DNA of 4,971 nucleotides from a virus (lineage: Duplodnaviria; Heunggongvirae; Uroviricota; Caudoviricetes): IMG/VR virus record IMGVR_UViG_2529292853_000007; one strand, written 5' to 3'. Below, in pieces: positions 1 to 4,971 of this stretch; positions within the stretch are counted from its first letter, which is position 1; the number at the start of each line of letters is the position of its first letter. The notes under the pieces were generated by a model that had not been told where the DNA came from, ran no database searches, and saw only the letters and a list, made by a program, of their open reading frames with translations. Made by a program: the position numbers and the translations under genes.

Positions 1-2496
1 GTAATGCGTACCTGACCACACAGCGCAAGGCGTGGGATGTGCTCAGTGATTTCTGCTCGGCGATGCGCTGTATGCCGGTATGGAACGGGCAGACGCTGAT
101 GTTCGTGCAGGACCGACCATCAGATAAGGTGTGGACCTATAACCGCAGTAATGTGGTGATGCCGGATGATGGCGCGCCGTTCCGCTACAGCTTCAGCGCC
201 CTGAAGGACCGCCATAATGCCGTTGAGGTGAACTGGATTGACCCGAACAACGGCTGGGAGACGGCGACAGAGCTTGTTGAAGATACGCAGGCCATTGCCC
301 GTTACGGTCGTAACGTCACGAAGATGGATGCTTTTGGCTGTACCAGCCGGGGGCAGGCACACCGCGCCGGGCTGTGGCTGATTAAAACGGAACTGCTGGA
401 AACGCAGACCGTGGACTTCAGCGTGGGTGCGGAAGGGCTTCGCCATGTACCGGGGGATGTCATTGAAATCTGCGATGATGACTATGCCGGTATCAGCACC
501 GGCGGGCGCGTGCTGGCGGTGAACAGCCAGACCCGGACGCTGACGCTCGACCGTGAAATCACGCTGCCATCCTCCGGTACCACGCTGATAAGCCTGGTTG
601 ACGGAAGTGGAATCCGGTCAGCGTGGAGGTCCAGTCCGTCACCGACGGCGTGAAGGTGAAAGTGAGCCGGGTTCCTGACGGCGTTGCCGATACAGCGTGT
701 GGGGGCTGAAGCTGCCGACGCTGCGCCAGCGCCTGTTCCGCTGTGTGAGTATCCGTGAGAACGACGACGGCACGTATGCCATCACGCCGTGCAGCATGTA
801 CCGAAAAAGAAGCCATCGTGGATAACGGGGCGCACTTTGACGGCGACCGAGCGGCACGGTGAATGGGTCACGCCGCCGCGGTGCAGCACCTGACGCCGAA
901 GTCACCGCAGACAGCGGGGAATACAGGTGCTGGCGCTGGGACACGCCGAAGGTGGTGAAGGGGTGAGCTTCCTGCTTCGCCTGACCGTGGCAGCGGATGA
1001 CGGCAGTGAGCGGCTGGTCAGCACGGCCCGGACGACGGAAACCACATACCGCTTCACGCAACTGGCGCTGGGGAACTACAGGCTGACAGTCCGGGCGGTA
1101 AATGCGTGGGGACAGCAGGGCGATCCGGCATCGGTATCGTTCCGGATTGCCGCACCGGCAGCGCCGTCGCGGATTGAGCTGACGCCGGGCTATTTTCAGA
1201 TAACCGCCACGCCGCATCTTGCGGTTTATGATCCGACGGTACAGTTTGAGTTCTGGTTCTCGGAAAAGCGGATTGCGGATATCAGGCAGGTTGAAACCAC
1301 AGCCCGCTATCTTGGTACGGCGCTGTACTGGATAGCCGCCAGTATCAATATCAAACCGGGCCATGATTATTATTTTTACGTTCGCAGTGTGAACACCGTT
1401 GGCAAATCGGCATTCGTGGAGGCTGTCGGTCAGCCGAGTGATGATGCATCAGGCTATCTGGATTTTTTCAAAGGCGAGATAGGGAAAACCCATCTGGCTC
1501 AGGAGCTGTGGACGCAGATTGATAACGGTCAGCTTGCGCCTGACCTGGCTGAAATCAGGACGTCCATTACGGATGTCAGCAATGAAATCACACAGACCGT
1601 CAATAAGAAACTGGAAGACCAGAGTGCAGCGATCCAGCAGATACAGAAGGTTCAGGTTGATACAAATAATAACCTGAACAGCATGTGGGCTGTGAAGCTG
1701 CAGCAGATGCAGGACGGACGCCTTTATATTGCGGGTATCGGTGCCGGTATTGAGAACACCCCTGACGGCATGCAGAGTCAGGTGCTGCTGGCGGCAGACA
1801 GGATTGCGATGATTAATCCTGCGAATGGCAACACAAAGCCGATGTTTGTTGGTCAGGGCGATCAGATATTCATGAATGAAGTGTTCCTGAAACGCCTGAC
1901 GGCTCCCACCATTACCAGCGGCGGTAATCCTCCGGCATTTTCCCTGACACCGGACGGGAGGCTGACGGCGAAAAATGCCGATATCAGTGGCAGTGTGAAT
2001 GCGAACTCCGGGACGCTCAACAACGTCACGATTAACGAGAACTGTCCGATTAAGGGCAAACTGTCAGCCAACCAGATTGAAGGCGATCTCGTTAAAACAG
2101 TGGGCAAAGCTTTCCCGCGGGACTCCCGTGCACCGGAACGGTGGCCATCAGGGACCATTACCGTCAGGATTTATGACGATCAGCCGTTTGACCGGCAGAT
2201 TGTTATTCCGGCGGTGGCATTCAGCGGTGCTAAACATGAGAGGGAGAATAACTGATATTTATTCGTCATGCCGCCTGATAGTGCGGAAAAACGGTGCTGA
2301 AATTTATAACCGTACCGCGCTGGATAATACGCTGATTTACAGTGGCGTTATTGATATGCCAGCTGGTCGCGGCCACATGACGCTGGAGTTTTCGGTGTCA
2401 GCATGGCTGGTAAATGACTGGTATCCCACAGCAAGTATCAGCGATTTGCTGGTTGTGGTGATGAAGAAAGCCACCGCAGGCATCAGTATCAGCTGA
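1..2496 (+). pseudogene. J: Lambda-like tail tip / central tail fibre host specificity protein J, C-terminal ~830 codons; 5' end lies outside the window; reading frame disrupted at multiple points (or sequence errors)
   Basis: Frame 3 from position 3 reads NAYLTTQRKAWDVLSDFCSAMRCMPVWNGQT... matching recalled lambda J, open to 653. Between 610 and 965 the J-like sequence hops frames (frame 2 at 611-688 NPVSVEVQSVTDGVKVKVSRVPDGVA; frame 1 at 691-786 YSVWGLKLPTLRQRLFRCVSIRENDDGTYAIT; frame 3 at 786-803 AVQHVP; frame 2 at 806-847 KEAIVDNGAHFDGD; frame 1 at 850-867 SGTVNG, and so on). It returns to frame 3 for ORF 927..2255 ([54 protein letters not shown]...). Frame 3 stops at 2253-2255, and the J-like C-terminus (...GVIDMPAGRGHMTLEF...ISIS) continues in frame 1 to the TGA at 2494-2496. 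Confidence 0.85.
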
Positions 2497-2515
2497 ATTT
2501 TATAACCCATATACG

Positions 2516-2540
2516 GGCGCCAGAAATGGCGCCTTTTTTA
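2516..2540 (+). terminator. Putative rho-independent terminator downstream of J: GGCGCC stem, 6-nt loop AGAAAT, GGCGCC, then TTTTTTA
   Basis: Perfect 6-bp GC stem at 2516-2521 and 2528-2533 followed directly by a T-run at 2534-2539, 20 nt after the J stop codon. Confidence 0.6.
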
Positions 2541-2552
2541 TTGCAGAAAAGC

Positions 2553-2566
2553 GAGAGGTAATTATG
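2553..2566 (+). promoter_or_regulatory. Ribosome-binding site (GAGAGG) and ATG start of lom
   Basis: GAGAGG at 2553-2558, 5 nt upstream of the ATG at 2564 that begins MRKVCAAILSAAICLAVSGAPAWA, a typical signal peptide. Confidence 0.6.
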
Positions 2567-3160
2567 CGTAAAGTTTGTGCAGCCATTTTGTCCGCAGCCA
2601 TTTGTCTGGCCGTATCCGGTGCGCCTGCATGGGCGTCTGAACATCAGTCCACGCTGAGCGCGGGGTATCTTCATGCCCGACGAACGTCCCCGGCAGCGAT
2701 GATCTGAACGGGATTAACGTGAAATACCGTTATGAGTTTACGGACACACTGGGGCTGGTGACGTCTTCAGCTATGCAGGAGACAAGAATCGCCAGCTACC
2801 CGTTACAGCGATACCCGCTGGCATGAAGATTCCGTGCGTAACCGCTGGTTCAGCGTGATGGCGGGGCCGTCTGTACGCGTGAATGAATGGTTCAGCGCGT
2901 ATGCGATGGCGGGTGTGGCTTACAGCCGTGTGTCGACTTTCTCCGGGGATTATCTCCGCGTAACTGACAACAAGGGGAAAACGCACGATGTGCTGACCGG
3001 AAGTGATGACGGTCGCCACAGCAACACGTCTCTGGCGTGGGGGGCTGGCGTGCAGTTTAACCCGACCGAATCCGTGGCCATTGATGTCGCTTATGAAGGC
3101 TCCGGCAGTGGTGACTGGCGCACTGACGGTTTCATCGTGGGTGTCGGTTATAAATTCTGA
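2564..3160 (+). pseudogene. lom: Lom outer membrane protein (Ail/Lom/OmpX/PagC family beta-barrel), phage moron; reading frame interrupted by three apparent single-base deletions (or sequence errors)
   Basis: Frame 2 from the ATG at 2564 gives MRKVCAAILSAAICLAVSGAPAWASEHQSTLSAGYLHA, then a premature stop at 2705-2707. Lom-like sequence continues in frame 1 (2683-2766, NVPGSDDLNGINVKYRYEFTDTLGLVTS), frame 3 (2769-2798, SYAGDKNRQL) and frame 2 again (2798-3160, TRYSDTRWHEDSVRNRWFSVMAGPSVRVNEWFSAYAMAGVAYSRVSTFSGDYLRVTDNKGKTHDVLTGSDDGRHSNTSLAWGAGVQFNPTESVAIDVAYEGSGSGDWRTDGFIVGVGYKF, stop TGA 3158-3160). Matches recalled lambda Lom nearly residue for residue. Confidence 0.85.
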
Positions 3161-3186
3161 TTAGCCAGGTAACACAGTGTTATGAC

Positions 3187-3213
3187 AGCCCGCCGGTTCT
3201 GGCGGGCTTTTTT
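3187..3213 (+). terminator. Putative rho-independent terminator downstream of lom: AGCCCGCC stem, loop GGTTCT, GGCGGGCT, then T-run
   Basis: 8-bp stem at 3187-3194 pairing with 3201-3208, followed by TTTTT at 3209-3213; sits 27 nt after the lom stop and 12 nt before the stf ATG. Confidence 0.65.
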
Positions 3214-3224
3214 GTGGGGTGAAT

Positions 3225-4971
3225 ATGGCAGTAAAGATTTCAGGTGTACTGAAAGACGGTGCAGGTAAACCGGTACAGAACTGTACAATCCAGCTGAAAG
3301 CAAAACGTAACAGCACCACGGTGGTGGTGAACACGGTGGCCTCAGAAAATCCGGATGAAGCCGGGCGTTACAGCATGGACGTTGAGTACGGTCAGTACAG
3401 CGTTATTCTGTTGGTGGAAGGCTTCCCGCCATCGCATGCCGGGACCATCACCGTGTATGAAGACTCACAACCGGGTACGCTGAATGATTTTCTCGGTGCC
3501 ATGACGGAGGATGATGTCCGTCCGGAGGCACTGCGCCGTTTTGAACTGATGGTGGAAGAGGTGGCGCGTAACGCGTCCGCAGTGGCACAGAACACGGCAG
3601 CCGCGAAGAAGTCAGCCAGCGATGCCGGCACATCAGCCCGTGAGGCGGCAACCCATGCGACTGATGCTGCAGGCTCAGCACGCGCAGCCAGCACGTCAGC
3701 CGGACAGGCCGCGTCGTCGGCTCAGTCAGCGTCTTCCAGCGCAGGAACGGCATCAACAAAGGCCACTGAAGCATCAAAAAGTGCTGCCGCTGCAGAGTCC
3801 TCAAAAAGCGCGGCAGCTACCAGTGCCGGTGCGGCGAAAACGTCAGAAACGAATGCGGCAGCGTCACAACAATCAGCAGCCACTTCTGCATCCGCCGCGA
3901 CCACGAAGGCGTCAGAAGCTGCCACCTCAGCCCGGGATGCGGCGGCCTCAAAAGAGGCAGCGAAATCATCAGAAACGAACGCATCATCAAGCGCCAGTAG
4001 TGCCGCTTCCTCGGCAACGGCGGCAGGCAATTCCGCGAAGGCGGCAAAGACGTCTGAGACAAACGCCAGGTCTTCTGAAACGGCAGCGGGACAGAGCGCC
4101 TCAGCTGCGGCAGGCTCAAAAACAGCGGCTGCGTCGTCTGCCAGTGCCGCGTCAACAAGTGCCGGGCAGGCCTCAGCCAGTGCCACCGCCGCCGGAAAAT
4201 CGGCAGAAAGCGCCGCATCGTCCGCTTCAACAGCCACAACGAAGGCTGGCGAAGCCACTGAACAGGCCAGCGCAGCAGCGAGGTCTGCTTCCGCAGCGAA
4301 GACATCCGAGACGAACGCGAAAGCGTCGGAAACCAGCGCAGAATCCTCAAAAACGGCTGCCGCATCGTCCGCCAGTTCTGCGGCGTCATCGGCATCATCT
4401 GCGTCTGCTTCAAAAGATGAGGCGACCAGACAGGCGTCAGCAGCGAAGGGCAGCGCCACGACGGCATCCACGAAGGCGACAGAGGCAGCTGGCAGTGCGA
4501 CGGCGGCAGCACAGAGCAAAAGTACGGCGGAATCCGCGGCAACGCGCGCCGAGACAGCGGCAAAACGGGCAGAGGATATTGCATCCGCCGTGGCGCTTGA
4601 GGATGCAAGTACGACGAAAAAGGGGATAGTACAGCTCAGCAGTGCGACCAACAGTACGTCTGAAACGCTGGCGGCAACGCCAAAGGCAGTAAAATCAGCC
4701 AATGACAATGCGAATAGCAGGGTGCCATCTAACCGAAAAGTTAACGGTAAAGCACTGACTGCGGATATCACTTTAACCGCCGCGCATGTGGCTGCTTTTG
4801 CCAGAAGGGCAACGGATACGTATGCCGATGCGGATGGTGGCGTTCCCTGGAATGCCGAATCAGGCGCTTACAATGTCACCCGCTCTGGCGACAGCTATAT
4901 TCTGGTTAACTTCTATACCGGAGTCGGAAGTTGCCGGACCCTGCAGATGAAGGCGCATTACAGAAATGGTG
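3225..4971 (+). CDS. stf: Side tail fibre protein Stf, N-terminal 582 codons; 3' end lies beyond the window
   Basis: ATG at 3225 in frame 3; I translated codon by codon to 4971 and found no stop. The product begins MAVKISGVLKDGAGKPVQNCTIQLKAKRNSTTVVVNTVASENPDEAGRYSMDVEYGQYSVILLVEGFPPSHAGTITVYEDSQPGTLNDFLGAMTEDD..., matching the recalled lambda Stf N-terminus, then a long Ala/Ser/Thr-rich region, then GIVQLSSATNSTSETLAATPKAVK. It is absent from the supplied ORF track, presumably because it has no in-window stop. Weak Shine-Dalgarno-like GGGGTGA at 3216-3222. Confidence 0.9.
   Translation, partial: MAVKISGVLKDGAGKPVQNCTIQLKAKRNSTTVVVNTVASENPDEAGRYSMDVEYGQYSVILLVEGFPPSHAGTITVYEDSQPGTLNDFLGAMTEDDVRPEALRRFELMVEEVARNASAVAQNTAAAKKSASDAGTSAREAATHATDAAGSARAASTSAGQAASSAQSASSSAGTASTKATEASKSAAAAESSKSAAATSAGAAKTSETNAAASQQSAATSASAATTKASEAATSARDAAASKEAAKSSETNASSSASSAASSATAAGNSAKAAKTSETNARSSETAAGQSASAAAGSKTAAASSASAASTSAGQASASATAAGKSAESAASSASTATTKAGEATEQASAAARSASAAKTSETNAKASETSAESSKTAAASSASSAASSASSASASKDEATRQASAAKGSATTASTKATEAAGSATAAAQSKSTAESAATRAETAAKRAEDIASAVALEDASTTKKGIVQLSSATNSTSETLAATPKAVKSANDNANSRVPSNRKVNGKALTADITLTAAHVAAFARRATDTYADADGGVPWNAESGAYNVTRSGDSYILVNFYTGVGSCRTLQMKAHYRNG
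3594..4560 (+). repeat. Ala/Ser/Thr-rich low-complexity repeat region within stf (fibre shaft), with a recurring K(T/S)SETNA motif
   Basis: About 320 codons dominated by GCN/TCN/ACN codons. The unit AAGACNTCNGAGACNAACGC (KTSETNA) begins at 3837, 3963, 4047 and 4299; the spacings of 126, 84 and 252 bp are all multiples of 42 bp (14 codons). Confidence 0.55.

Follow-up and report, generated by a model that had tools for sequence, protein, structure and literature searches.

Frameshifts in the J and lom genes of a lambdoid prophage contig read as a probable collapsed-repeat consensus artefact rather than prophage decay

The J and lom genes in a 4,971-bp stretch of lambdoid prophage DNA (hereafter, the window) are broken by small frameshifts that, judging from sequence comparison, are very probably an artefact of the assembly consensus, made by collapsing merged prophage copies, and not a product of prophage decay. 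The window is the complete contig AQAC01000076.1 of the draft assembly GCA_000356785.2 and contains a lambdoid tail region, in which the 3' 2.5 kb of J is followed by lom and by the beginning of stf. Among the three explanations put forward in the original prediction, a consensus collapsed from divergent prophage copies is favored by the location of the indels at sites that are polymorphic between alleles, and the other two, basecalling error and recent inactivation, lose ground, as detailed below.

All features discussed here lie on the plus strand. The tail-tip gene J (lambda gpJ family; positions 1–2496) was delineated by Pfam matches and by alignment to the annotated gpJ of Escherichia coli PSS-12 and of phages. 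As recorded, J is split into separate ORFs (3–653, 927–2255, and 2281–2496) that match, in series order, Phage-tail_3, Ig_J, Ig_J_second, Phage_Tail_Tip, and Ig_GpJ_C, that is, the full gpJ series, with the N-terminal ~324 codons falling outside the contig. An intact terminator hairpin followed by a T run (2515–2534), conserved across all relatives, separates J from lom (2564–3160), which encodes an Ail/Lom outer-membrane beta-barrel protein. The Pfam Ail_Lom profile matches the lom fragments 2564–2707 and 2834–3160 (profile positions 1–44 and 92–199, respectively), and the mid-portion of the profile is out of frame as recorded. Another intact hairpin with a T run (3187–3208) precedes the side tail fiber gene stf, identified by the Pfam phage_tail_N domain, of which the 5' 1.75 kb (3225–4971) is present and open to the contig end.

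Indels were called against E. coli PSS-12, the closest intact relative (97.1% identity to the window). This comparison yielded 16 indel columns that represent 15 events, 14 deletions and one insertion. In the J gene, alignment to PSS-12 and other alleles places 11 deletion events in a cluster spanning 604–963 (after ~604/605, 690, 785, 803, 848, 866, 877, 894, 924, 934, and 962); one of these removes 2 nt, for a total of 12 bases, a multiple of three, so that the frame recovers downstream. The single inserted base, at 2250–2253, terminates the ORF 927–2255, and lom carries three single-base deletions (after 2677, 2765, and 2797). No indels were found in stf (3225–4711 aligned to PSS-12) or in either intergenic region, which bears out the original observation that the damage is limited to J and lom and that stf and the intergenic signals are clean, with both terminator hairpins intact. 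The initial estimate of about 16 frameshifts, a dozen of them within 360 bp, thus holds for columns and bases and translates into 15 events, 11 of them (12 bases) in 360 nt. Such clustering was rightly judged unlike uniform random error: none of the 200,000 uniform simulations placed 11 events in 360 nt.

When the 12 missing bases are restored and the extra base is removed, J becomes an uninterrupted 834-codon frame, with no in-frame stop and no excess of substitutions, that is 97.8% identical to J of PSS-12 and of phage vB_EcoS-640R1. Compared to lambda J, the identity of the repaired product is 96% for the 500 residues at the start of the part encoded in the window and 54% for the last 334; hence, the very high amino acid identity to lambda noted at the outset applies to the damaged part of the protein but not to its C-terminal end.

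The principal evidence for the artefact comes from the coincidence between the indels and inter-allele polymorphism. Polymorphic columns were defined from 12 intact natural alleles which, coming from other genomes, serve as proxies for the copies in this strain. Within J, 10 of the 12 deleted columns are polymorphic (12 of 12 if gaps are allowed to slide) against a background of 12.6% (p = 4e-8), and in lom, the proportion is three of three against a background of 13% (p = 0.002). Nine of the 11 J events coincide with differences between two types of natural alleles, PSS-12-like and SPF_0923-like, which otherwise differ at just six positions in the interval. The insertion fits the same scheme: in the allele alignment (columns 2265–2271), the window reads AACT where the natural alleles read AAC or ACT, AACT being the shortest common supersequence of the two. 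Thus, the consensus is short of a base at sites of difference between natural alleles and, at one such site, has a base too many.

A search with an exact 32-mer spanning two deletions retrieved two further draft-derived IMG/VR contigs, here denoted L003 and L004, both more damaged than the window, in which the deletions of the window recur together with additional ones, forming nested sets. Over 4.7 kb, L004 shows 69 gap openings; all are deletions, and every deletion of the window is among them. L003 shares eight of the 11 J-cluster events (nine of the 12 deleted columns). In both contigs, the J deletions fall on polymorphic columns (p = 3e-10 and 6e-16), as do the lom deletions of L004 (p = 7e-13) and the deletions in the upstream L/K/I/J region (p = 2e-13). 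The downstream part of L003 is 100% identical to the finished genome NCCP 13717 across 3.69 kb; in the damaged stretch, there are only four substitutions relative to this genome, against 26 dropped bases, and ~17 of the 20 L003 events map exactly to differences between the window allele and the NCCP 13717 allele. Shared ancestry would likewise predict deletion positions common to three assemblies, when the link to polymorphic sites is set aside.

These patterns suggest the following scenario. Reads of at least two co-resident lambdoid prophages, whose J and lom differ by a few per cent, would have been merged into a short repeat contig of the draft E. coli assembly. The multiple alignment built by the assembler appears to have spread each mismatch over two half-occupied gap columns; usually, both would be called as gaps, with the loss of one base, and once both would have been retained, with the gain of one. 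Segments in which the copies are identical, or diverge too much for merging, such as the receptor-binding end of J and stf, would then come out clean. The frameshifts would accordingly be a property of the consensus, absent from any DNA molecule in the strain, which most likely has intact J and lom in each of its prophages. In finished E. coli genomes, both the window and its 560–1010 segment occur in a median of 2–3 and up to 15 places per genome. Which segments become damaged is not fully explained by this model: the window and the NCCP 13717 allele differ at ~15 positions within 1–600, yet this region contains no deletions.

A close precedent is the 454 draft of E. coli EC958, in which comparison with the finished PacBio genome attributed clusters of indels both to the collapse of a 3.7-kb repeat (11 substitutions and 4 indels) and to a mixed phage tail-fiber region (2 substitutions and 20 indels) (PMC4134206). 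The error clusters of that draft affected only prophage or island segments that were multi-copy or mixed, the assembly being accurate elsewhere, and the discrepancy was settled in favor of the finished sequence (PMC4134206). The indels described here likewise fall within multi-copy prophage tail genes and are missing from finished genomes. Unlike the mixture of substitutions and indels in EC958, however, nearly every discrepancy in the present case is a base dropped at an inter-copy SNP, and identical positions recur in three assemblies. Moreover, the EC958 case was proven at the level of reads (PMC4134206), whereas here we infer the mixing of alleles at the deletion sites in the strain by comparing sequences.

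Basecalling or low-coverage error without repeat collapse, whether associated with homopolymers, methylation motifs, or an uncorrected long-read patch, appears very unlikely, even though the errors are all small indels, clustered as in a low-quality patch, and six of the 14 deletions lie within runs of 2–3 nt. The remaining eight take out a base outside any run, and all 16 homopolymers of at least 5 nt in the window are intact, so that the original claim that nearly all losses occur at short homopolymers does not stand, and we rejected the homopolymer error model. The association with Dam (GATC) or Dcm (CCWGG) sites, proposed as a check, was rejected as well: no indel site lies inside either motif, the nearest GATC being 25–520 nt away and the nearest CCWGG 9–706 nt away, that is, at least 9 nt in every case. 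Random read errors would be expected neither at identical positions in three assemblies nor on allele polymorphisms.

Recent inactivation, that is, a defective prophage with single-base deletions in J and lom inherited by three strains, is, in our estimate, less probable still. E. coli commonly harbors cryptic prophages in which tail genes are broken, and the same deletions do appear in three separate assembly records. However, decay predicts no link between deletions and inter-allele polymorphic sites, and the observed link is far beyond chance. A pseudogene is expected to carry its lesions in independent high-quality sequences, with a mixed mutational spectrum that is independent of polymorphism. 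Here, the lesions were seen elsewhere only in L003 and L004, which are error-rich drafts, and consist of 14 small deletions and one insertion; there are only losses of 1–2 nt and a single gain, with no nonsense mutations, in a gene that, once repaired, is nearly identical to intact J. In the case of L004, inactivation would require 69 deletions in 4.7 kb without any other damage. Across 5,426 finished E. coli genomes, none of the 11,374 copies of J has the deletions; the best full-length match to the segment aligned 451 nt to 463 nt, and the best match over the full window was 97%. The 32-mer across two deletions had no exact match among 185,579 GTDB species-representative genomes or in JGI metagenome contigs, and a literature search for the accession returned nothing relevant. 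In the cryptic prophages of E. coli K-12 (Rac, Qin, DLP12, and e14), the lambdoid tail genes are likewise not intact; the lesions there, however, comprise truncations, IS insertions, and large deletions, all of which finished genomes reproduce, whereas the indels described here are of 1–2 nt and occur in none of the finished genomes searched. Finally, recombination between co-resident prophages of ~97% identity could form a heteroduplex in which faulty repair deletes the mismatched base, leaving single-base losses exactly at inter-copy SNPs, but we give this possibility hardly any credence because its support, the positional pattern alone, is more simply explained by an assembly artefact.

If the collapsed-repeat origin is correct, the frameshifts in J and lom are an ordinary finding without biological significance, and their practical value is that of a warning. 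Frameshifts made by the consensus would occur on short prophage-tail contigs of this and sibling draft assemblies, and neither the J and lom "pseudogenes" nor the unusual proteins deduced from them should be taken for prophage decay or for new protein variants. One such protein, the 442-aa J fragment, is already in protein collections, where it is present only on this contig. This type of error has a diagnostic signature that can be recognized from assembled sequence, without read data, namely, indels located at SNPs between alleles and insertions that combine two alleles into a supersequence.

The tail region otherwise resembles the J-lom-stf region of phage lambda (NC_001416, 15505–21973) in gene order, Pfam domains, and the terminators after J and lom. 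It differs in the C-terminal receptor-binding third of J, where the identity is low as given above, in lom, which belongs to another allele group than lambda lom, and in stf, which is uninterrupted over the portion present. In the lambda record, stf is shown as two tail fiber CDSs (orf-401 and orf-314), a split that reportedly represents a genuine single frameshift in lambda PaPa (Hendrix and Duda 1992). The frame break in laboratory lambda thus lies in the same tail-fiber module as those in the window, but it is one reproducible mutation in stf, whereas here stf is intact and there are many breaks in J and lom that track allele polymorphism and are thereby marked as probable consensus errors. 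Between positions 4711 and 4764, PSS-12 is ~890 nt longer than the window, and a chimeric mis-join in stf was considered; this was rejected, given that the stf of the window is collinear with NCCP 13717 stf over its full length, the sole gaps being a compensated pair of a 3-nt deletion and a 3-nt insertion near 4609–4622.

The window, which makes up the whole of contig AQAC01000076.1 (4,971 bp) in draft assembly GCA_000356785.2, is a lambdoid prophage tail region with three genes on the plus strand, all confirmed by Pfam domains: J, the tail-tip gene, represented by its 3' 2.5 kb (1–2496); lom (2564–3160); and stf, the side tail fibre gene, of which the first 1.75 kb are present (from 3225 to the contig end). 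Two terminators on the same strand, at 2515–2534 and 3187–3208, have intact hairpins. Close relatives of this region are found in hundreds of phages and about 5,000 finished E. coli genomes, mostly several per genome.

Alignment to the closest intact relative, from E. coli PSS-12 (97.1% identity to the window), reveals 15 indel events comprising 16 indel columns, none of them in stf or the intergenic regions, which bears out the core of the original prediction, namely, clustered frame damage in J and lom with clean stf and intergenic signals. Eleven deletion events (12 bases) are clustered in J, after plus-strand positions ~604/605, 690, 785, 803, 848, 866, 877, 894, 924, 934 (2 nt), and 962; in addition, J contains one extra base at 2250–2253, and lom lacks single bases after 2677, 2765, and 2797. 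The clustering is indeed far beyond uniform error, 11 events within 360 nt having been reached in none of 200,000 uniform simulations. With the 12 bases restored and the extra one removed, J reads as an open frame of 834 codons, whose product shares 97.8% identity with intact J proteins. The number of bases lost within 604–963, 12, is divisible by three, so the frame past the cluster equals that ahead of it; between the last two cluster events, the ORF at 927–2255 runs out of frame for about 9 codons. The suggestion that nearly all lesions lie at short homopolymers does not hold: 8 of the 14 deletions hit a base outside any run, the others occur in runs of 2–3 nt, and all 16 homopolymers of at least 5 nt in the window are untouched.

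The indels follow natural variation among alleles. For this comparison, 12 intact alleles (from lambda, ten further phages, and the PSS-12 prophage) were aligned to the window, these alleles from other genomes serving as a proxy for the second J/lom copy of the strain. Of the 12 columns deleted in J, 10 are polymorphic, compared to 12.6% of the columns overall (hypergeometric p = 4e-8), and all 12 are once gaps slide within equivalent placements; in lom, this is the case for 3 of 3, against a 13% background (p = 0.002). Four J sites are polymorphic through a single allele only, that of Salmonella phage SPF_0923, which suggests one particular second haplotype. Across the 390-column interval, the natural alleles of PSS-12 and SPF_0923 differ at 9 of the 11 J deletion events but elsewhere at just 6 positions. 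The single insertion is of the same kind as the deletions: the window reads AACT where natural alleles have AAC or ACT, AACT being the shortest sequence that holds both. Window positions 1–600 differ from the allele of finished E. coli NCCP 13717 at about 15 sites, yet are spared damage.

A 32-mer that covers two deletions is absent from GTDB species-representative genomes and JGI metagenome contigs but present in two IMG/VR contigs from isolate drafts, L003 and L004. The latter (IMGVR_UViG_2531839332_000012) carries all the window deletions and many more, with 69 gap openings in 4.7 kb, every one a deletion. Its dropped bases extend upstream of the region covered by the window, through L, K, I, and 5' J (L004 1–2600), where 70 columns are deleted in 2.6 kb, in patches separated by clean stretches, 30 of them on polymorphic columns (p = 2e-13, with only three reference alleles). 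L003 shares 8 of the 11 J-cluster deletion events and has extras of its own. Deleted columns of L003 and L004 are enriched on polymorphic sites in J (p = 3e-10 and 6e-16, respectively), as are those of L004 in lom (p = 7e-13). L003 is the clearest case: it is 100% identical to NCCP 13717 over 3.69 kb (late J, lom, stf), and at L003rc 829–1400 it misses 26 bases with only four substitutions, about 17 of 20 events falling exactly at sites where the window and NCCP 13717 alleles differ. This damaged stretch reads like a common subsequence of two real alleles. That three assemblies share identical positions of damage, that the indels coincide with SNPs, and that the shifts show no link to homopolymers or to Dam or Dcm motifs together make a platform error unrelated to repeats, that is, context-dependent basecalling, highly improbable.

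Window 560–1010 matches 11,374 places in 5,426 finished E. coli genomes, and the deletions occur at none of them; the best full-length matches pair 451 nt in the window with 463 nt in the genome. Real decay of J and lom, the recent inactivation considered originally, is less credible still: decay would not direct lesions to inter-allele SNPs, nor would it yield 1–2-nt losses alone with no nonsense mutations and no excess of substitutions, and at least some finished genomes should show it.

The tracking of inter-allele polymorphism favours the remaining option: the frameshifts are very probably a consensus artefact of divergent prophage copies collapsed in the draft assembly and not a biological feature. 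We infer that reads from at least two co-resident copies were merged into one consensus and that, at each site of difference between them, the alternative bases probably ended up in two half-occupied columns of the multiple alignment; a base would be lost if both columns were called as gaps and gained if both were called as bases. Segments identical between copies would come out clean, as would those too divergent for merging (the J receptor-binding end and stf), which would account for the confinement of damage to mid-J and lom. The same class of error was found when an E. coli 454 draft was compared with its finished genome: indels clustered where a 3.7-kb repeat had been collapsed and where a phage tail-fibre segment was mixed (PMC4134206). 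Caution is needed when such contigs are used to count pseudogenes or to compile protein catalogues.

The very high identity to lambda holds for the damaged part of J (96%) but not for the C-terminal third (only 54%), which is of a different receptor-binding type, common to PSS-12 and phage 640R1 (window 1500–2496). The host-receptor specificity of this J probably differs from that of lambda. At 4711–4764, stf is a shorter mosaic variant, ~890 nt shorter than that of PSS-12; this architecture is natural because it is collinear with stf of NCCP 13717. The latter gene (L017 6083–9655, NZ_CP115984.1) is listed as a pseudogene ('incomplete; missing N-terminus') despite opening with the same conserved N-terminal sequence as stf of the window. 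The Ala/Ser-rich, compositionally biased part of stf (3622–4771) contains long alternative-frame ORFs on both strands, of 335 aa on the plus strand and of 349 and 263 aa on the minus strand; of these, the antisense ORF of 349 aa, which the source record calls as a gene and for which no Pfam hit is on record, is probably spurious.

In the published genome of phage PhiR29_2 (PV340557.1, L013 997–1019), J is annotated as two overlapping CDSs, with a 2-nt gap (AAGG--GGGAG) at columns 973–974 of A1, the alignment spanning J, the polymorphic site of the last J deletion in the window; this may reflect either a true frameshift or a comparable consensus error. The lom homologue of phage mEp332 (PV340541.1, L008 2596–3198) is 603 nt long and carries no annotation beyond hypothetical protein; one of its G-runs is short by one base relative to every other allele (column 547 of the lom alignment, A2), possibly a homopolymer error or a real frameshift.
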